Source of the DNA: an uncultured bacterium
GTDB lineage: Bacteria; Oederibacteriota; PGYV01; CAWJRG01
NCBI GenBank assembly: GCA_963845185.1
Contig: CAWJRG010000009.1
Span: 704,001 to 768,000, forward strand
DNA: 64,000 nucleotides
Direction: 5' to 3'
Shown here: one piece after another, positions 1 to 10,095 of the stretch
How the letters are laid out: each line of letters begins with the position of its first letter
How positions within the stretch are numbered: position 1 is the first letter of the stretch
Program-made: the position numbers and the translations under genes
Notes under the pieces: generated by a model
The model's database searches: none
What the model was told of the DNA's origin: nothing
What the model saw: only the letters and a program-made list of their open reading frames with translations

Positions 1-687
1 GACGCAATCCCATACTCCACCCAGACGCAGATTGCAAAATTATATACGCCGACTGTTACCGTGACAATGACGGCGACGCCGAACATGACGCAGACAATAG
101 GCGCGATACTTACGGCCGTAGGCGCAGGCAATGCTTCGGCAACTGCCGTTGCCGGTTTATACACGCCTACAATTACCGGCACAGGCACGCAGACTCCAAA
201 TACAACATTGACGGTCCAGGCAATATTGACAGCCGTGGGGGCGGGCAATGAGACAGCCACGCAAGCGGCGCAAATGACCCAGACTGCGGCAGCTGTTTTA
301 TGGACTCCAACAAGCACGGCAACCATTACCGCAACAATAAGCGGATTACAACAAACAGCAACAGTCCTGGCGCAGGAAACAGCGACCATGACCGCAATGT
401 TTGTTATCGGGCTTGGCAGTTCTGCGCCGTACCCCGGAACCTTTAACGGGCAGTTTCAAAATCCTTCGGGCGTGGCATTGGACAGCAGCGGAAACGTATA
501 TGTTGCTGACACGCTGAATTACAGAATCGAGGAATTCAACAATGCAGGCACGTATATTACCCAATGGGGCAGTTCCGGAAACGGCATAGGGCAGTTTTAC
601 CAGCCCCGGGGTATAGCAGCAGACAGCAGCGGCAACGTATATGTTGCAGACGAGGGCAACAGCAGGATCGAAGTATTCCATCCGTAA
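1..687 (+). CDS. NHL-repeat protein with Thr/Ala-rich repeated linker (5' end outside window)
   Basis: Frame is open from base 1. Two NHL repeats (GQFxxPxG[VI]AxDSSGNVYVAD...RI) at the C-terminus, preceded by repeated AILTAVGAGNxxAT units. Confidence 0.85.
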   Translation, partial: DAIPYSTQTQIAKLYTPTVTVTMTATPNMTQTIGAILTAVGAGNASATAVAGLYTPTITGTGTQTPNTTLTVQAILTAVGAGNETATQAAQMTQTAAAVLWTPTSTATITATISGLQQTATVLAQETATMTAMFVIGLGSSAPYPGTFNGQFQNPSGVALDSSGNVYVADTLNYRIEEFNNAGTYITQWGSSGNGIGQFYQPRGIAADSSGNVYVADEGNSRIEVFHP

Positions 688-785
688 AATAATTGGTATT
701 TAGGAATTGTCAATGCTGAATTTAGGTAGTAAAATAACCCTGATTAAAGCAGTCAGTTGAAAATTTACAGAATATGGAGGGAATC

Positions 786-3497
786 ATGAGTAAAATTTCC
801 GCTAAAATCGGGATTGGCAAGACTGCAAAAATAATCTTATCCGGGTTTATATTTCTGGTCTTATTAAATTACAGCCTGCATGCAGCAGTTATCTGCACGC
901 CACAATCTGCGGTTATTTGCGCGGCTGTCGACGATATTGCAGACATTTATGTCAACGGCATATACCTGGGGACTTTCGGGTACGTGGACATGAGCATGAC
1001 AGGCCAGGCGTCTCCCACATGCATGAGCCTGAATACGGCACAGCTTACGCCGCTAAACCTGGTGCCGACGGGAAATATTCTGGCAGTGCATGACCAGAAC
1101 ACTGGCTGCTGCGAAATGTGGGCAACCTGGTCAATGGATATCACATGCCAGGGCGGCGCGCACAGTTACGTGGAGAGCGACAGCGGCGATGGAATTGATT
1201 ATTTTGAGGATGCAAACGCATGCTGTAATCCAACGCCGGTTCCGGTGGGTACGGAAATATCCTGCGATTTAGGCCCGAACGACGGGACTTACACGTGGAC
1301 AGACCCAAATTATACAGAATCAGGCTGGTCGCCTGCTTCAGGCATAGTTTATACCGGTATCGGATACGGCCAAAAAACAGACTCTTTTCAGTTCAACAAC
1401 GTTATGCCGCCCCTGGGATTTGGCGGCATTGCGGCCGGGTGCCAGCAGATATTTTTCAGGCAGGCGTTTAACCTGAACGAAATGCCAACGCCGGCGCCGC
1501 CGAATTTAACAATAACAGAAACATCGGACAAGACCTTTGTAACAGGGCCGAATGATATAGTGAGTTTTTCTCTCCATATATGCAACACAGGCGGAGGAAC
1601 GACAAACCCTGTCGCAACAGTTGACAGCTGGACTGATACAATGAGCGCCTGGCAGTACCAGGGGCCGTGGGGCATTTTAAGCGGCTCTTCCAACGGATTT
1701 TATTATGGAAATATTTCCGGGGGCGCTGCGAACGGGCCGCCTGCTGTTCCAATAATTTTTGACAACGGGTTCCCGGGCGTTACCTGCACCGGATGCAACA
1801 CGCCCTGTTATGATTATACATGGATGCTGGAATCATGGAACATTGCTTCATGCGTCGGCTGGTACAATAGCGTCACTTTGACATGGCAGACAGGGTCTGC
1901 AAGCAGCGGCACAGAAATAGATAATTTCTGCCCGACATACATACCTACAGTGACGCAGACAATAACACTTACATGCACATATACGCCAAACATGGACACG
2001 CCAACCCAGACTCCAACCATCACTCCGGTGCTTGACTGTGTTTTCTATCATATAGACCGGTCAGCTGTGCCTGCAATGGTATTCATGCCAAAACTCACCT
2101 TATTGGCAAATATCGGCGATTGTGATTCGTGCACTGTGTATGTGGACGGCGTGCCGGTGTCATCAACATATACGGCATCCACCAGGGTAGTAATGTTCAC
2201 GGCGTACGGCACAGATATAATTATTTCAAGGAGCAATTACATAGGCAACGCGACATACGCCATAACAAAAGCAACTTTGTATAACAACAAAAAATGGGCT
2301 TATTCTTTTACCTTCGACGACTGCAGGCCGACCACCAGAACTGTCGTACTCCCCATGTTCCAGACTTATGGGTACATCGGCGGGTCTGCGCTTAATACAG
2401 GGAATATGGCCCCGACTACCGATGGCTACGGTATGAGCTGGGCGAGCGCAGACATACTGCGCGCAGCCGGCTGGAGCTTTTTTGACCATACCGTCAACCA
2501 CGATAATGTAACCTGCAGCAATATAAGTACACAGGTCCTGCCTGTCAAAAGCGCTATTGAGGCGAGATGGCCCGGATACCTGTGCACGGAATTTGTCTAC
2601 CCATACTGCGACACGACATACTGGACATGCATAGCTAATTCAGGGCTTTTTCTTTCGGCCGAAAGCTGCCCAGGCAACAATTATGCCGACATAGTGCCGC
2701 CGAATCCCTATATACTGAACAGGAACATATTATGTGCGGCAGGGAACCTAACCACTACTGCCCTGGCAAACGCGGCCGCGGATAACGCAGCAAACGACAC
2801 GCGGTCCAGGTGGCTGATAAACTTTACCCATTATGTCGAGCCGGGCAACGGCACTCCGCCGACTACATACGACACAAACGAAGCGACCCTGGGCGCGCAC
2901 ATTGCCTATGTTTACAATACCTACGGCGAGGGCGGTTTGAACAACATGTGGTTCGCGCCGACCGACGAGGTCATGCAGTATATACTAACAAGGACAAATG
3001 CCGTGGTAAGTTTTCTTAGTACAGGCCAGTGCGGTATAATAATGCCGGCATCGCCGACCAATACGCCGGTGAATACAATGACAAGTACGCCTGTTTTGCC
3101 AACGGCGACTTTCACGAAAACGCCAATAATAAGCCCGACAATTACCGAAACAGCAACAGCAACGGCAGCCCAGACAGCTGCGGCGGGCAGGTTTGCAATC
3201 ACAGATACTGTCATTTTTCCAAATCCGTATAACCCGGAGAAAAATTATTATTTCAATATCAAAATTGACCTTGCGAAGCCGGCCAGCCAGCTGAAAATAA
3301 GGATATATACGGCCGCGTTCAGGCGGGTAATGGAAGAATGCGAGGATGGCCTGTTTTCCGGCCTGTATACTTCAACACTGCCCTGGTGGAAATTTTCAAA
3401 CCTGTCGCCGGGAATGTATTACCTGGTGATTTTGGGCGAGTCAACAAGCGGGGAAAAGGCAATATCAAATCCTGTCGAGCTGATAATTTTAAAATAG
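786..3497 (+). CDS. Large secreted protein: Cys-rich N-terminal domains, polysaccharide deacetylase (NodB-like) domain, T/P linker, T9SS-like C-terminal domain
   Basis: Signal peptide; SFTFDDC and FFDHTVNH deacetylase-like motifs; C-terminal IFPNPYNP...IRIYTAAFR...GMYY...IILK; GGAGG RBS before ATG 786. Confidence 0.75.
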   Translation: MSKISAKIGIGKTAKIILSGFIFLVLLNYSLHAAVICTPQSAVICAAVDDIADIYVNGIYLGTFGYVDMSMTGQASPTCMSLNTAQLTPLNLVPTGNILAVHDQNTGCCEMWATWSMDITCQGGAHSYVESDSGDGIDYFEDANACCNPTPVPVGTEISCDLGPNDGTYTWTDPNYTESGWSPASGIVYTGIGYGQKTDSFQFNNVMPPLGFGGIAAGCQQIFFRQAFNLNEMPTPAPPNLTITETSDKTFVTGPNDIVSFSLHICNTGGGTTNPVATVDSWTDTMSAWQYQGPWGILSGSSNGFYYGNISGGAANGPPAVPIIFDNGFPGVTCTGCNTPCYDYTWMLESWNIASCVGWYNSVTLTWQTGSASSGTEIDNFCPTYIPTVTQTITLTCTYTPNMDTPTQTPTITPVLDCVFYHIDRSAVPAMVFMPKLTLLANIGDCDSCTVYVDGVPVSSTYTASTRVVMFTAYGTDIIISRSNYIGNATYAITKATLYNNKKWAYSFTFDDCRPTTRTVVLPMFQTYGYIGGSALNTGNMAPTTDGYGMSWASADILRAAGWSFFDHTVNHDNVTCSNISTQVLPVKSAIEARWPGYLCTEFVYPYCDTTYWTCIANSGLFLSAESCPGNNYADIVPPNPYILNRNILCAAGNLTTTALANAAADNAANDTRSRWLINFTHYVEPGNGTPPTTYDTNEATLGAHIAYVYNTYGEGGLNNMWFAPTDEVMQYILTRTNAVVSFLSTGQCGIIMPASPTNTPVNTMTSTPVLPTATFTKTPIISPTITETATATAAQTAAAGRFAITDTVIFPNPYNPEKNYYFNIKIDLAKPASQLKIRIYTAAFRRVMEECEDGLFSGLYTSTLPWWKFSNLSPGMYYLVILGESTSGEKAISNPVELIILK

Positions 3498-3506
3498 TAT
3501 TTGTAT

Positions 3507-3576
3507 ATTGATAATTGAGAATTAGTAAAGGTTTTCGGTTCGGCAAAACAAACGCTAGAAGTTGTCAATTTTCAAT
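3507..3576. repeat. Imperfect inverted repeat made of TCAATT-type heptads
   Basis: ATTGATAATTGAGAA (3507-3521) matches the reverse complement of TTGTCAATTTTCAAT (3562-3576) at 13/15. Confidence 0.6.
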
Positions 3577-3588
3577 GAAGGAGATTTA

Positions 3589-4118
3589 ATGAAAAAGTTT
3601 GGTTTTGTTTTTTTATGGCTGTTGATTCTTGTTTCTTTTGCGGTTTGCGCGGATGCAGGCGGAAATACCATAAATGCGGAGGCTGCTAAACCGGAATTAC
3701 TATATCCAAACCTTAATTATTTTCTCGGGATGAATATAGGTATTACGGGCGATGATAAAATATACAGCACCAATGACCCTGCTATAGAACCGCTATTAAT
3801 GAGTACTTCAAAAGGAAAAGAATACCTTGAGCACTATTATTTTAAAAATACATTCGGAGTTATTATGTCGCTCAGTTCAATCGCGGATATTATTGCTCAA
3901 TTCAATTATATGGGAACTCATGTCAACAGCCCCCGGACAAAATGACAGCAACAATAACTGTATCAGCTATGTTGTTGGGTATTATCGGCTGTGTTACAGC
4001 TCCATGGATTATAGATTCGTCATATAATGACCTTTATAAGAGCATAAATGAATATAACCTGACAGTCTCCTGCGGGAAAGAGACAAAGGCTGTTATAAAG
4101 AAGGAAATAAAATTTTAA
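3589..4118 (+). pseudogene. Hypothetical exported/membrane protein split by a 1-bp frameshift (or two coupled ORFs)
   Basis: ORF 3589-3945 has a signal peptide. ORF 3942-4118 (MTATITVSAMLLGIIGCV...DLYKSINEYN...EIKF) overlaps it in the -1 frame. One extra C in the C5 run at 3930-3934 fuses them. Confidence 0.5.
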
Positions 4119-4196
4119 TCATTCGCTCAGGAGATTAACAAAGGCAGGGATCAAGCAGATTTTTATATTGTCAATTTTCAGTTGAGGTGATCAATC

Positions 4197-4967
4197 ATGT
4201 TCAAAAAAATCATATGCATTGCAATATTATTGTTTAGTTTTGCCGGATTCGGCTGTGAACCGGCGGGACCGCCGAAAACCATACTTTTCATCGGCAACAG
4301 CTTCACCTACGTTAATGATTTGCCAGGTTTATTTACCAAACTGGCGCGCTCAGGCGGGAAACTGGTGGCTGCAGGAATGGTTGCGCCCGGAGGATACAAG
4401 CTCATTCAGCACGTTAACGACGGGAATACCATTCAAAAACTAAACTCGCAGAAATGGGACATGGTGGTTTTGCAGGAGCAAAGCCAGACACCGGCTATTG
4501 AGGATGATAAATACGACATCATGTACCCGGCCATACGCAGTTTTAATGAAATGATACGCAAGGCAGGTGCAGTGCCGATTCTTTACCTGACCTGGGGCCG
4601 CAAAAATGGCGACACTGAGTTAGGCTACAGCGACTATGCTTCCATGCAGGACAGCCTAACAAAGGGCTACATGGACATCGCACAGGAGCTTTCTATTGAG
4701 GTGTCACCGGTCGGGGCCGCCTGGAAAACAGCGCATGAGCGCCGGCCCGAGCTGGAGCTCTGGGCAGGTGACGGAGTACACCCCAGCCTGGCAGGTTCCT
4801 ATCTCGCGGCCTGTGTTTTTTACGCGGTCATCTATAAAAAAAGCCCTGAAGGTTTGGGTTTTAAGGCAGGCTTGGATGTGGACACAGCTTCGTTTTTACA
4901 GACAGTCGCGTCGGAAACTGTCCTGACCGATACAAAAAAGTGGCTTATTCCCGAAGAAGGGAAATAA
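4197..4967 (+). CDS. SGNH/GDSL-family hydrolase, exported (possible lipoprotein)
   Basis: FIGNSFT, LQEQS and DGVHPS motifs; N-terminal signal ending FAGFGC. Confidence 0.8.
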   Translation: MFKKIICIAILLFSFAGFGCEPAGPPKTILFIGNSFTYVNDLPGLFTKLARSGGKLVAAGMVAPGGYKLIQHVNDGNTIQKLNSQKWDMVVLQEQSQTPAIEDDKYDIMYPAIRSFNEMIRKAGAVPILYLTWGRKNGDTELGYSDYASMQDSLTKGYMDIAQELSIEVSPVGAAWKTAHERRPELELWAGDGVHPSLAGSYLAACVFYAVIYKKSPEGLGFKAGLDVDTASFLQTVASETVLTDTKKWLIPEEGK

Positions 4968-5064
4968 TAAATTTTCAATTTTGCTAATCAGGAAAAATTC
5001 CGCAACCTTTTTCATATTATTCCGTTATATTGATAGTGTCGGAAAACCCGGAGCGACTGAACCA

Positions 5065-5553
5065 ATGGATTTAAAAAATATTACTAAAAAAGGTAATGAA
5101 GGAGTATTTGACTCGAAGAACTTGGCCCTTTTTTCGTATTGTCGCCAAAACCCTATGATAATAATTGATCCAGATGGCAGAAGTGGTTTAAGTTTATGGG
5201 GTAATGTACCTATTGCACCGCTTGTCGATGTTACTTTGGGCCCGGTTTTTTCTGAAGAAGGAATTGCACTGAAAGTAGGAATATCTCTTGGTCTTGAAAC
5301 TCCATTTGGGAGTAGTCTTGATTTAGATAAATTTATGCCTGGATTTAATTCGGATTTTTCATTACTAGGAAAATTTGATGCTAAAGGAAAATTTACAGGA
5401 ATTAATTTATTAGCTGCAGGTTGGGAATTGAGTTATACCACCCCTGCTATATCGTGGCAAGAAGTTAAAGAACTTCAACATCCGTTAACAACAGGATCTC
5501 GACTTACGGGTCCAGATTTATCTCCTGACGTTGAAGATAAACAATTCTGGTAA
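5065..5553 (+). CDS. Orphan Rhs C-terminal module (core end plus putative toxin domain)
   Basis: GVFDSKNLALFSYCRQNPMIIIDPDG matches the Rhs core-end motif (NLYxYxxNNPxxxxDPxG) and is followed by about 124 aa of Gly-rich unknown domain. No upstream YD repeats. Confidence 0.75.
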   Translation: MDLKNITKKGNEGVFDSKNLALFSYCRQNPMIIIDPDGRSGLSLWGNVPIAPLVDVTLGPVFSEEGIALKVGISLGLETPFGSSLDLDKFMPGFNSDFSLLGKFDAKGKFTGINLLAAGWELSYTTPAISWQEVKELQHPLTTGSRLTGPDLSPDVEDKQFW

Positions 5554-5581
5554 GGAGGTATTGCAATATGGAGAACTATTC

Positions 5582-5872
5582 ATGAATATTTTTAAATGGG
5601 TAACGATTATAGTCGTATTGAGCTGGTCTTTTTTATTATTTTTTTTAAATAAGATAATTGCTAGAGCATATATAAATTTCCAGGTAAACACTATTTTTAG
5701 AGGTTTGTTTGTTACGTATTTTATTAAAAAGTATGGTTTTGAAAAAGCAAAAATTATATTATCAAGCGATAATAATATTTTAATGAAGATTTATCGATTT
5801 GATAATATATTTGTTTCTATAGCATCTTTGTTGTGTTTAATATATGTTTGTGTTTTTTTAAATAAAATTTAA
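5582..5872 (+). CDS. Small membrane protein, putative Rhs immunity protein
   Basis: Directly downstream of the Rhs tip; very AT-rich; 2-3 hydrophobic segments; GGAGA before ATG 5582. Confidence 0.55.
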   Translation: MNIFKWVTIIVVLSWSFLLFFLNKIIARAYINFQVNTIFRGLFVTYFIKKYGFEKAKIILSSDNNILMKIYRFDNIFVSIASLLCLIYVCVFLNKI

Positions 5873-6022
5873 AGTTTGTTGATAATATTTGTTAAAATAT
5901 TCGCAGATAGTTTTAAAAACTGATACCGCTTGTCGGGACCTGCGGCCCGGACTTGAGCGGGTATAAGATTCCGTAGGCGTTTGATAAAACCAAACGCAAC
6001 GGCATCTAACAAGGAGGCTGAC

Positions 6023-7615
6023 ATGATAAGAAAAGGCAGTAAACAAAGCTCTTTTCTTGACGCTGACTACATCTGCGAGCGGCTTGTGCCACAGGACAGT
6101 TTTTACCGTAAATTCAAGGAGCTTGTAATGCCGTTAATCAAAGACGAGAATTTTGATTCCATGTACTGCAGGGACAACGGCAGGCCCGCAATATCACCCG
6201 CATTGCTCGCGATAGCCTGTATTTTGCAGTTCTACTGCGGCTTATCCGACCGGGAAATGGAAGAAGCCTGCATGTACGACATCCGTATAAAGCATGTTCT
6301 CGGAGTAGGCATAGACGAGAGGCCTTTTGACCACTCATCGCTCGGCGACTTCCGGCAGCGTTTGCTTGAAAACGGAAAAGAAAAAGACATATTCGACAGG
6401 ATTGTCCAGCACCTTGTGGATAAAAAGCTGATAAAGAAAGACGAAATCCAGCGCATTGATACTACGCATGTAATAGCGGATATTGCCATCCCTTCCATGA
6501 TAGCAATGGTCAAAAAAGGCGTATATGAAATATTCAAGATAATCAGGAAGCAAAACAAAGATGTGTACAACACGATAAAAAAGCGGATACATATATCCGA
6601 ATACAAAAGAGAGACGATTAACCAGAATATGCCGGGCAGGTTCGACCTGGAGAAACGCAAGAAAAAGCTTGTGCGGACAATAGCTGAGGCAAAAATAGTA
6701 TTAAGGTACATTGAAAGACTGGAAATGAGCGCAGAACTAAAAAGCAAGGTGGATATATTAAAACAGATACTTTTGGAAAATACAAAGGAGGATAAAAGAG
6801 GCAGACTGGTGGAAATGGAGAATAAAGAAAAACCAACAAACAGGATGATATCGCCCATTGACCCGGAGGCAAGGTGCGGGGCAAAGTCAAAAACCATGAG
6901 GTTTTACGGTTACAAAGCGAATGTAACAGAAACAGTAAACAGCCGTTTTATCACGAACATAATGGCTATGGTCGGCAATGCCCCAGACGGTTCGAAAACT
7001 GTGGAAATGGTGATGGAGCAGGAGGAACATAAAATAAAGCCGGTTAAGTTGATAGGTGACGCGGCTTACAGCAACGGAGAGAAGCGGAAAGAACTGCTTA
7101 AATACGGGACACAGATTGTGGCACCAATGAGAAACAAGACAGGCAGAGCCCAGCATATATTCCCGAAGAACATGTTTAAGTACGATGAAGAAAAACAGAC
7201 TTTGACATGCCCGAACGGTGTTGTGACCAAAAGAACCACCCTTGACAGGCTGCACGACGCTATAACGTATCACTTTCCGGTTTATGAATGCGAGATATGC
7301 GACCTGCAGGCAAGGTGCACGAATAGCGGTGAAGAAAGAAGAACCGTAGGCATTACAAGCTGGCATGATGTGCTGTTAAAAACCGAAAAATATAACAGGA
7401 CAAAACAATACCAGAAAGACATGAAACTGCGCCAGCCCATAGAAGGCAGCATGTCTGAGATGAAAGAATATCACAAGATGATAAGGGCGCGATACCGCGG
7501 ATTACAGAAAGTCGGATTGCAGTTTTACTTCACGGCAGCCGCAGTAAATATAAAACGCTGGATTAAAGTAATACTTGAGAAAGTGAAGCCAAAGCGGGTT
7601 TTGTGTCCGGCCTGA
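6023..7615 (+). CDS. IS1182-family DDE transposase
   Basis: N-terminal GRPAISP...LSDRE...DHSSLGDFRQR (DUF772-like); IDTTH, GDAAY, RQPIEG DDE residues; CPNG...CxxC...C insertion; AAGGAGG RBS. Confidence 0.9.
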   Translation: MIRKGSKQSSFLDADYICERLVPQDSFYRKFKELVMPLIKDENFDSMYCRDNGRPAISPALLAIACILQFYCGLSDREMEEACMYDIRIKHVLGVGIDERPFDHSSLGDFRQRLLENGKEKDIFDRIVQHLVDKKLIKKDEIQRIDTTHVIADIAIPSMIAMVKKGVYEIFKIIRKQNKDVYNTIKKRIHISEYKRETINQNMPGRFDLEKRKKKLVRTIAEAKIVLRYIERLEMSAELKSKVDILKQILLENTKEDKRGRLVEMENKEKPTNRMISPIDPEARCGAKSKTMRFYGYKANVTETVNSRFITNIMAMVGNAPDGSKTVEMVMEQEEHKIKPVKLIGDAAYSNGEKRKELLKYGTQIVAPMRNKTGRAQHIFPKNMFKYDEEKQTLTCPNGVVTKRTTLDRLHDAITYHFPVYECEICDLQARCTNSGEERRTVGITSWHDVLLKTEKYNRTKQYQKDMKLRQPIEGSMSEMKEYHKMIRARYRGLQKVGLQFYFTAAAVNIKRWIKVILEKVKPKRVLCPA

Positions 7616-7854
7616 GCGAGAAAGCAGTAGGAAAATAAGGGAATAAAAAAAGCAAGCGAAGGCGAAATGGAGAAAACGGAATGAACGAAGCAGTTGAAGT
7701 AAAGATTGAAGAAGAGGAAGCGGGCAAGAAAAGAATCCGGGAAACCCGGAATGAAAAAGCTATGCCTTTAAAACACACAGCTGAAATAAACCCCTTTTTT
7801 AGAGGGGTTTTCCGACGGTATCATATTATATATAATCCATATTGGAGGCTTTTA

Positions 7855-8898
7855 ATGAAAACAACATTTAACATGGTTATTGTAATGTGCTTATTAAACG
7901 CTATTTTTTCCGGCTGCAGCCATGAAACAGTTCGCATTACAGCGAAAACCGACGGGATTACACCCCTGAAAGTGCAGGCTAACCGCATCGTTGATTCAAT
8001 CGGAAATATAGTAATACTTAAGGGACTGAATATCTGCTACCCGTCTATTTTGATCCGGGAAAACCACTGGAACGAGGAATATTTCAAGGAAATGGCATCC
8101 TGGGGTGCAAAGCTTATACGCGTACCCATAGACCCGGGAAGCTACAGAAGATTTGGCAGCAAAAAGACTTTTCAAGTGCTTGACCAGGCTGTGCAATGGG
8201 CTAAAAGATACGGCATGTACGTCATGATAGACTGGCATTCCATAGGAAATATTGTATCCGGTATTTTTCAGGACCCATGGCAGGAGGAAATGAAGACAAC
8301 TGCTAAGGAAACAAAAAAATTCTGGTCAGATACGGCACAACGCTACAAAAAAGAACCAACGGTTGCTTTTTATGAAATATTCAACGAGCCTGCCTCGATG
8401 CACTGGAAAGGAGGCAGCATGTCATGGCAAAAATGGAGGGATGTGGCTGACGAAATTATAGATGCTATATATGCGCAAAACCCGGCAGCTATCCCGGTCG
8501 TAGGCGGGATGGAATGGGCCTATGATTTAAGGGACGCTGCAGAGGCGCCTCTGCGCAATAAGGGCATTGTTTTTGCCGTGCACCCGTATCCCGGCCATGC
8601 AGGCCAGCCGTGGGAGGATAACTGGGAAGAGGATTTCGGATATTTGGCAAAGGATTACCCGATGATGCTCACAGAATTTGGTTTTGACCCGGATGATAAA
8701 ATTATGCCTTCTGTTTACAAAGCAGATAATGATTACGGCCGCCGCATCCTGGCTTATGCGGATAAAAAAGGAATGTCATGGACAGCATTTGTTTTCTGCA
8801 ATTGCGAAAGCTGGCCGATGCCGCTTTTTAAGGACTGGGAAACTTATACGCCTACGGAATCAGGGGCATTTTTTAAAGAGCAGTTAAATAAACAATAA
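7855..8898 (+). CDS. Glycoside hydrolase family 5 (cellulase-like) lipoprotein
   Basis: IRVP, IDWH, FNEP (acid/base), HPY and TEFG (nucleophile) motifs; lipobox-like FSGC; GGAGG RBS before ATG 7855. Confidence 0.9.
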   Translation: MKTTFNMVIVMCLLNAIFSGCSHETVRITAKTDGITPLKVQANRIVDSIGNIVILKGLNICYPSILIRENHWNEEYFKEMASWGAKLIRVPIDPGSYRRFGSKKTFQVLDQAVQWAKRYGMYVMIDWHSIGNIVSGIFQDPWQEEMKTTAKETKKFWSDTAQRYKKEPTVAFYEIFNEPASMHWKGGSMSWQKWRDVADEIIDAIYAQNPAAIPVVGGMEWAYDLRDAAEAPLRNKGIVFAVHPYPGHAGQPWEDNWEEDFGYLAKDYPMMLTEFGFDPDDKIMPSVYKADNDYGRRILAYADKKGMSWTAFVFCNCESWPMPLFKDWETYTPTESGAFFKEQLNKQ

Positions 8899-9165: not shown

Positions 9166-9579
9166 ATGAGGCTACAGGTTGTTGAGATTGGAAATTCGAA
9201 AGGCATCAGGATCCCGCAGGCAATCCTGAAGCAGGTGCATTTTGAAAATGAAGTCGACCTTGACGTGTCGGAAGGAAAGATAGTCCTGCGCAGGCTTGTG
9301 GACCCGGATTACATTTTTGGTTTTGAGTCAATCGCAAAGATGGACGACCAGAGCATTCAGAGAATGCTCAGAAAGGTCACCAGGACAGACCTTCTGATTG
9401 CGCTTATCGACGCGGACAAAACCGTAAAAGAAGCAGTATTCCGGAACCTGTCGGAATCGGCCAGGAATTACATCAAGGCAAAAGTGACCAAGCTGGAGAA
9501 AGGCAACGCGCGCGACCTGATGATTGAGAGGAGCCGTAACATGATCAGCGAAGCTTTCGCAGAAATGATCAGGGAGTAA
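9166..9579 (+). CDS. AbrB/MazE-type DNA-binding domain fused to FliG C-terminal-like domain
   Basis: N-terminus IGNSKGIRIP...IVLR (AbrB/MazE); C-terminus FGFESIAKMDDQSIQRMLRKV...LLIAL...VFRNLS (FliG-C pattern); GGAGG RBS. Confidence 0.8.
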   Translation: MRLQVVEIGNSKGIRIPQAILKQVHFENEVDLDVSEGKIVLRRLVDPDYIFGFESIAKMDDQSIQRMLRKVTRTDLLIALIDADKTVKEAVFRNLSESARNYIKAKVTKLEKGNARDLMIERSRNMISEAFAEMIRE

Positions 9580-9642: not shown

Positions 9643-10095
9643 ATGGCAGTAGAAATTTCCGAAGCAGGAAATCTAGAAAGCTTGAGGTTTACGGGTGTAG
9701 TGCTGGAAAGCTTAAAAGCTGATAAAAAAGTTGAAGTTGTTGAAGTTGAAGCGGAAGAGAAAGTTGTTGTGCGCAGGAATATCGACAGGAACTTTAAAAC
9801 GGGTTTTGAATTACTCTCAAAAAAAGAAGACGCGGACATCAGGAAAATGCTGAACAAAGTGGACATTTTAGACGTTGTTACTGCGCTTGCAAATGCCGAC
9901 AAAACTGCAAAGCTTGCCGTTCTCAGGAATCTACCTCCAAACCTCAGGGAATATGTAGAGATCAATATACTGATTGTTGAAAAAAAGGGGATACACGGCA
10001 ATGAAACCGAGACATGCAGGACAAAGATAAGCGAAGCGTTTGTGGAAATGCTGTATGACGTGCATGCTTCAAGCCCGTCAAACGCGGTAATTTAA
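9643..10095 (+). CDS. Diverged paralog of the AbrB-FliG-C fusion
   Basis: AGNLESLRF...VVVRR (degenerate AbrB); GFELLSKKEDADIRKMLNKVD..DVVTAL..ADKT...RNL; shares ISEAFxEM with the upstream gene. Confidence 0.7.
   Translation: MAVEISEAGNLESLRFTGVVLESLKADKKVEVVEVEAEEKVVVRRNIDRNFKTGFELLSKKEDADIRKMLNKVDILDVVTALANADKTAKLAVLRNLPPNLREYVEINILIVEKKGIHGNETETCRTKISEAFVEMLYDVHASSPSNAVI

Follow-up and report, generated by a model that had tools for sequence, protein, structure and literature searches.

An IS1182-family transposon clade that inserts in frame into rhs core ends and probably exchanges Rhs toxin tips

Rhs toxins change their variable C-terminal tips by displacement: in the parts of the sources drawn on here, the core gains a new tip in frame and the former one is pushed downstream, so that arrays build up (Jackson et al. 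2009, PMC2935791). The model given there relies on homologous recombination from an episomal circle between near-identical cores, with exchange within one clade. It predicted an unseen mobile pool of tips, and it allowed that tips might come as mobile-element cargo, yet circles would still be needed. Recombination with an orphan tip has been shown (Koskiniemi et al. 2014, PMC3967940), cassette recombination has been invoked (Zhang et al. 2012, PMC3482391), and the portion of a 2026 preprint considered here places insertion sequence (IS) sites next to poly-immunity loci, with no in-frame delivery (10.64898/2026.07.13.738213). Within the IS1182 family, IS1272 inserts at inverted-repeat structures, and members can be target-specific (PMC5678879). 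No description of IS-driven in-frame tip exchange was found in the literature searched, with subscription journals and ISfinder outside it. Here, we analyze an IS1182-family element of 2791 bp in a 64,000-nucleotide stretch of contig CAWJRG010000009.1 (the window) from an uncultured bacterium, whose 3.5-Mb genome is referred to as G000 (C-numbers, its contigs; L-numbers, fetched loci). The element encloses an Rhs core end with its tip, a small membrane gene, and a transposase. The clade to which it belongs probably performs Rhs C-terminal displacement through targeted, frame-preserving transposition, which replaces the tip and likely re-arms the Rhs toxin of the host.

A typical IS1182 element is compact, with the transposase as its sole gene, whereas the window element holds two further frames. 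The clade resembles the family in passing the NF033551 profile, in its terminal inverted repeats, and in having a target preference. It differs from IS1272 and the two other IS1182 families of G000 in being larger and cargo-bearing, in its asymmetric protein-coding target, and in its 5-bp duplication and translated left repeat. Transporter IS (tIS) carry passenger genes inside their ends that move with the element; the clade shares this arrangement, but its passenger is a gene fragment that needs the start and frame of the target gene. By its transposase the element is a genuine member of IS1182, and by its passengers it counts as a transporter IS. The H-repeat, or ISEc1, of the Escherichia coli rhs loci belongs to another IS family, lies beside the rhs frame, and is not known to supply an in-frame tip. 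Both are IS recurrent at rhs loci, ISEc1 beside the frame and the clade inside it. Integrative elements that rebuild a gene (phages in tRNA genes, e14 in icd, SXT in prfC) supply a replacement end and leave the target frame open. These use site-specific recombinases and near-identical att sites and restore the same function, whereas in the clade a DDE transposase acts on a degenerate site and the domain brought in is another, variable one. While the component kinds (IS1182 transposase, passengers, Rhs tips) are known, the working system formed with rhs genes has no counterpart in the literature searched.

Insertion of the clade into rhs core ends

A first search of 61 genomes identified three others with a close transposase; among the loci listed, those from two of these genomes have the remainder of an Rhs core end after the right repeat. 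Transposase homologues form 442 clusters. To obtain an unbiased set, an alignment of 40 of 120 listed homologues was used as query, and loci were taken on transposase similarity alone. This yielded 126 loci: genome contigs contributed 46, and metagenome contigs the best 80 of 176. A single protein used as query against the same kinds of contigs gave no matches where the alignment query succeeded, and viral contigs scanned for transposase relatives contained none. A left repeat was located at 85 loci, a right repeat at 101, and both at 70, with most misses at contig ends. Counts out of 70, 71, 84, and 57 below were made after duplicate removal.

Among the distinct left ends, 66/70 have a frame that starts at base 1 of the repeat (DSVGK...) and leads into an NP..DxxG core end and a tip, as opposed to 0 in the other two frames. 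The four non-matching ends comprise two in-frame motif variants, one decayed cargo-free form, and one distant outgroup. Upstream, 45/71 left flanks are an rhs core ending in N-x-Y-x-Y-x in the same frame (other frames, 0), and none of 70 left flanks fits in the opposite orientation. Downstream, 59/84 right flanks continue as xxNP....DxxG, the displaced remainder of the rhs gene (other frames, 0). At a typical junction (L026), the host sequence GLEGGINLYVYV passes into DSVGKPRFEANLYTYAANNPVNLADPWG at the left end, and (H)VAANPVNLVDPSG follows the right end. Paralogous cores that are free of the IS pass straight from YxYx into xNP, so the DSVGK segment is foreign to the native rhs gene. The outcome is the same as that of the Rhs C-terminal displacement described in the sources above, with the old tip downstream of the new one. 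At the gene level, the targeted displacement is shown, and we are highly confident of it.

These flanks bear on an alternative account of the element, namely, an ordinary passenger IS without a special target that keeps its toxin-immunity pair as an addiction module or spreads orphan modules. Such an account fits the window copy and a left end at G000:C9:230212, both of which lie outside rhs genes, and also the fact that the cargo travels with the element. It fits poorly with most flanks being rhs core ends in a single phase and orientation, and with the AATAAYCC-like run that off-pattern sites retain after the duplication. In addition, no Met precedes the last DPxG of the core-end segment that opens the cargo (the stub) in 54/67 elements. 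The addiction module put forward by the sequence-only reading gains little from the 13/67 stubs that do have one, though the window's copy is among them (ATG at 5065). Overall, an untargeted passenger is very improbable.

Exact 5-bp target duplications were found at 30/57 distinct two-ended sites, and 43/57 sites have at most one mismatch, as opposed to 0 for lengths of 3, 4, 6, and 7 bp. Two-ended relatives span 2016-3155 bp, the clade being mostly 2.2-3.2 kb. By record title, at least nine phylum-level groups have such junctions: Thermodesulfobacteriota, Nitrospirota, Nitrospinota, Bdellovibrionota, Omnitrophota, FCPU426, Bacteroidota, Bacillota, and Pseudomonadota. These titles are mostly those of metagenome-assembled genomes, in which binning errors are possible. 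WP_082021125.1 marks a candidate locus in the cultured bacteria Geobacter soli and G. anodireducens. In a quick tree that carried long-branch warnings, related tips sit on separate branches, and the tree does not prove the clade to be a single group.

The link to rhs genes could also arise by homologous recombination between stub and rhs cores, with the transposase as a bystander. The stub does resemble its target, and an element's own stub is slightly closer to its own target than other stubs are (19.1/33 versus 18.0/33 bases; closer at 26/37 sites). Recombination with orphan tips is also documented (PMC3967940). However, the junctions coincide exactly with the ends of the repeats and carry a duplication of 5 bp, and the repeat remains between host core and stub. 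Stub and target are only ~58% alike over 33 bases, far under the very high identity of the core in the 2009 crossover model, as far as it is drawn on here (PMC2935791). Relative to recombination-based displacement as described in these sources, the present case involves a DDE transposase, terminal repeats, and a duplication at the junction, across the range of phyla given above. We consider a bystander transposase extremely unlikely. Guidance of the insertion by stub homology was likewise not adopted; the signal is weak at on-pattern sites and absent at the 11 off-pattern sites.

Under targeted displacement, the transposase would read a degenerate DNA site made up of the codons of N-L-Y-x-Y-V-x-N-N-P. 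The 5 bp duplicated at the junctions are the last two bases of the second Tyr codon and the next codon, so that the left repeat starts on a codon boundary. The host frame continues through the repeat (DSVGK) and the stub into the new tip, which gives unbroken genes of up to 2155 aa, and the old tip is found downstream of the right repeat, as seen at the gene level. The fusion may still cleave itself, by way of the first Asp of the host or the Asp encoded by the first codon of the repeat. Cargo is exchanged between elements, as the pattern across loci shows, and the stub recreates the target and allows elements to stack.

A narrower version of this scheme is also somewhat favored. In it, the element is a dedicated warhead exchanger: the transposase recognizes the DNA of the autoprotease loop, the left repeat encodes the catalytic Asp that comes first, and every transposition event equips an rhs gene, whatever its host lineage, with a functional new toxin-immunity pair. 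If true, this would provide the mobile tip carrier predicted by the C-terminal displacement model and an IS end shaped by protein function. How Rhs proteins acquire foreign tips is an open question, for which the clade is a concrete and testable vehicle that needs only a short degenerate site. The clade also shows an IS that edits a protein domain in frame instead of disrupting a gene, with a repeat that serves the transposase as its site and at the same time encodes protein. As an integrase that is directed by a motif and preserves the frame, the transposase is a candidate.

Target site and the copy in the window

A target matrix was built from 28 exact-duplication sites of other genomes and used to score 7.0 million G000 positions. 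Ranks 1 and 2 of these are the two native rhs core ends of G000. Both rhs genes lie on C5 (G000:C5:651809-669114, beside very long Thr-rich repeat proteins) and are intact and free of the element. The site used in the window falls in the top 0.02% of positions, and 1453 positions score as well; it is intergenic, between two intact hydrolase genes, with no full-length rhs gene upstream. The window copy is an off-target one, inserted between genes at a sequence that resembles the target. Where the left pattern is lacking, sites still mostly have T^A at the cut and an AATAAYCC-like run eight bases on (9 sites, the window's included), which suggests that the codons for Asn-Asn-Pro are what the transposase reads.

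The sequence-only reading had placed the left end about 990 bp upstream of the transposase, and these boundaries hold. The left (IRL, 5032-5049, GATAGTGTCGGAAAACCC) and right (IRR, 7805-7822) inverted repeats match at 16/18, and ATATT lies directly outside both (5027-5031 and 7823-7827). Repeats and duplication are not a chance pairing, because repeats of the same type bound the relatives and 5 bp recurs as their duplication length. The features of the element and its surroundings are as follows.

5014..5031, + strand: left half of the target site, intergenic; the DNA reads like L-F-R-Y-I, a look-alike of the rhs motif LYxYx (from sequence and matrix score)
5027..5031, + strand: target duplication ATATT, left copy, 5 bp, the duplication length of the clade
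5032..5049, + strand: left inverted repeat, which doubles as codons 1-6 (DSVGKP) of the cargo frame
5032..5178, + strand: Rhs core-end stub with an open frame between IRL base 1 and DPDG; of the long-loop type, with an Asp-to-Asp distance of 45; ATG at 5065
5179..5553, + strand: variable C-terminal tip of 124 aa, putative toxin; no Pfam match and no other homologue
5582..5872, + strand: gene for a small membrane protein of 96 aa, putative immunity gene, 20.6% GC
5889..5908, + strand: short conserved block upstream of the transposase, common to L043, L072, and the window; the exchangeable cargo has its right edge nearby
5923..6007, + strand: member of a dispersed two-hairpin repeat just before the ribosome-binding site of the transposase; a later passenger
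6023..7615, + strand: IS1182-family DDE transposase, 530 aa, uninterrupted
7805..7822, + strand: right inverted repeat; at rhs targets, the frame that leads on into the displaced tip reads GVFRRY(H) here
7823..7827, + strand: target duplication ATATT, right copy, 5 bp
7828..7840, + strand: right half of the target site, ATA-TAT-AAT-CCA, a look-alike of the xNNP codons
4197..4967, + strand: upstream neighbor, an intact DUF4886/GDSL-like hydrolase gene, not rhs
7855..8898, + strand: downstream neighbor, an intact glycoside hydrolase family 5 (GH5) gene, not rhs

The transposase scores 332.8 bits against NF033551 (IS1182; cut-off, 270) and also matches PF05598, PF01609, and PF13751. The closest plasmid-borne IS1182 transposases, among the 15 matches listed, are <30% identical. 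The cargo frame is open from IRL base 1 to 5553 and contains ...NLALFSYCRQNPMIIIDPDG plus the 124-aa tip. As in an orphan Rhs tip-immunity module, the core-end motif YxYxxxNPxxxxDPxG is followed by a variable tip, but the window copy is not downstream of a full-length rhs gene. The stub matches the Rhs core model TIGR03696 with an E value of 0.062 only, under the cut-off that fused relatives exceed, and over its first 146 bp it shares 75% identity with the L043 left end. Stub and tip together have a GC content of 37.5%, compared with 20.6% in the small gene and 44.1% in the transposase, in agreement with the earlier description of an Rhs core-end frame and a low-GC small membrane gene inside the ends. 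The 96-aa product has two hydrophobic stretches. For the tip, no Pfam match was found, nor any homologue beyond near-identical DNA in contigs of other samples; matches in the ESM Atlas were all unnamed and below 0.9. Neither the tip nor its partner gene matches any toxin or immunity family, and the putative roles of toxin and immunity gene are assigned to this pair by position. A promoter scan gave chance-level results (9 versus 7.8).

The segment from 5923 to ~6007 belongs to a dispersed hairpin repeat with 170 nhmmer matches in G000. In contigs from other peat samples, 5891 is joined straight to 6020 and this repeat is absent. An inner left end near 5920, which would have placed the cargo outside the element, was thereby ruled out. 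Among the matches listed, the repeat shows a strong strand bias along C9 and C10 and sometimes forms 100-bp tandem arrays (C9, ~916500-917200).

The window's is the only full copy of the element in G000. The proposed search for other copies succeeded among relatives, with the same and with different cargo and 5-bp duplications, and not for a second full copy in the genome itself. A second left end is present at G000:C9:230212-232547 (L198), with 15/15 repeat bases; it opens in frame into an Rhs stub, has a different tip and a TPR gene of 618 aa, and truncates a HEPN/DUF86 gene. Neither a right end nor a transposase was detected within ~30 kb of it, and it is likely a relic of the same clade.

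Mobility, cargo exchange, and fused proteins

Identical 2569-bp copies occupy three sites of one chromosome (L047, L048, and L050), two in rhs cores and one outside, and identical 2720-bp copies occupy two sites of one contig (L035 and L037). The left end and cargo of the window element have a different upstream flank in two other samples. This bears out the earlier claim that all 2791 bp, cargo included, move as a unit. The related proposal of a transporter IS that spreads toxin tips stands as far as the cargo inside the ends and its mobility are concerned; it falls short in that the element is no plain transporter, as it targets the rhs core end and fuses the tip in frame.

Backbones that are 85-90% identical carry unrelated cargo (L026/L090, L086/L087, L086/L136, and L092/L100), and the window element has a backbone like that of L072 (82%) and a stub like that of L043. 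In one contig from another sample, a 99% identical partner gene (3 differences/316 bases) is joined to a transposase start that is ~81% identical (85/458). The 68 cargo tips fall into 47 clusters; four cargo clusters also hold tips displaced at other sites, indicating that cargo is drawn from the native tip pool. The GC content of the cargo is lower than that of the transposase in 63/67 elements. A hydrophobic stretch occurs in 53/65 cargo partner genes versus 21/34 genes after displaced tips, kin in these sets not being independent, and tips that act on membranes may be favored in the cargo.

That the stub recreates a target is shown by elements arranged head to tail and by stubs in tandem. 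In L035:7018-13732, three elements lie head to tail on one full-length rhs gene with only the 5-bp duplication between them; two have the same tip, and the remaining one differs in its tip and shows a truncated transposase match. Stubs repeated in tandem and in frame (DSVGK...NLYxYx DSVGK...) occur in L080, L103, and L027:5707 and in proteins P0178, P0179, P0181, P0185, and P0285, which is the expected trace of insertion into the stub of an earlier element.

Upstream of the left repeat, the frame is open for 1100-2051 codons in six distinct loci. The fused products measure 2155, at least 1906, 1678, 1437, 1350, and 1246 aa and have YD repeats, and 26/27 longer fused frames scanned exceed the TIGR03696 cut-off. 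A profile of 39 junctions retrieved 670 protein representatives (E values up to 0.001), some of them identical to proteins of the fetched loci. In the best 150 of these, the repeat-derived pentapeptide precedes NP..DxxG in 135 and follows a host YxYx in 103; 11 proteins are at least 500 aa long, and 129 tips form 90 clusters. The DSVGK signature offers a handle for collecting hundreds of unannotated tip-immunity pairs.

Release of the RhsA tip depends on two aspartates, D1324 and D1346, according to the part of the source drawn on here (PMC8765631). The first IRL residue is Asp in 55/67 elements and sits 23-25 residues ahead of the last Asp in 49/67, compared with a native spacing of 23-24 in 29/30 junctions. 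With the repeat Asp at near-native spacing, the stub looks like a complete copy of the protease loop, and the fusions may still self-cleave. Predicted structures of a fused core end and a native control both have pLDDT values of <50 over the last 25-45 residues. We infer that the fusions are fairly likely to be working weapons.

Several observations weigh against displacement as read here. Regarding the sites, neither cargo end in G000 lies within an rhs gene, the rhs pattern is absent at 26/71 left and 25/84 right flanks, and many matches are in short orphan cores rather than full-length genes. An exact duplication is absent at 27/57 two-ended sites (13 off by one base), where collapsed assemblies or recombination between copies may be responsible. 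A true empty allele was not found in the genus of G061 (28 genomes), among relatives of G064 (61 genomes), or in the fetched loci, which hold paralogous IS-free cores only. The empty site that the sequence-only reading had proposed to look for was not found either, among 24 genomes of the window's order (no close GH5 match), and contigs of other samples did not span the site. There are also cargo-free relatives: a 2016-bp variant (L118-L123) with a decayed stub, which occupies partly palindromic sites outside rhs genes and which the quick tree places within the cargo-bearing elements, and, in G021 and G014, short pairs of repeats whose ends are alike. Regarding function, a toxin family is matched by only 3/68 cargo tips (Tox-WTIP twice, Tlde1 once) and an immunity family by 1/65 second genes, below the cut-off. 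Moreover, 12/67 left ends begin with Gly or Glu instead of Asp, the window stub has an Asp spacing of 45 (long-loop form) and not 24, and insertion puts ~16-17 extra residues between the first Asp of the host and the last Asp of the stub.

Part of this would also be expected if targeting and in-frame fusion were real and the fusions dead or neutral, with rhs cores as a safe landing site, the immunity gene kept, and the open frame a leftover of capture. The many insertions in orphan cores or outside rhs genes, the increase in spacing between host Asp and stub Asp from 23-24 to, mostly, 37-45, and the tips that mostly lack a toxin family all agree with such a scenario. The annotation of cargo tips weighs little against toxicity, because the displaced native tips are about as poorly annotated (any Pfam match in 8 of 51). 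Dead fusions are, in contrast, hard to reconcile with the state of the reading frames: stubs come in 12 lengths, every one in whole codons, with no frameshifted stub among 70 left ends, and tips are open for 90-213 codons in 67 elements. In addition, the first codon of the repeat preserves the catalytic register, and at least six fusions exceed 1200 aa. Fusions without function thus appear unlikely, and we retain displacement that re-arms the host toxin as the preferred reading.

Short relatives and other IS1182 elements

Matches to the repeats number 46 in G021 and 49 in G014 (L215-L254). The 40 stretches read contain mostly cargo-free short elements, and one site among those listed carried a tip. 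Many are repeat pairs of 90-200 bp with 5-bp duplications, resembling miniature inverted-repeat transposable elements and showing no rhs link.

Two other IS1182 families are present in G000 (for example, C1:191972-193342 and C5:708857-710224), with elements of ~1.63 kb, no cargo, and different ends. In one of them, each of the 12 copies read is central in a palindrome of the type GTAGAG...CTCTAC; for the other, the flanks of the 6 copies read are also partly palindromic. Elsewhere in the window, the gene at 9166-9579 combines a MazE-like N terminus with a FliG C-terminal-like domain, and another FliG_C-like gene comes next at 9643-10095.

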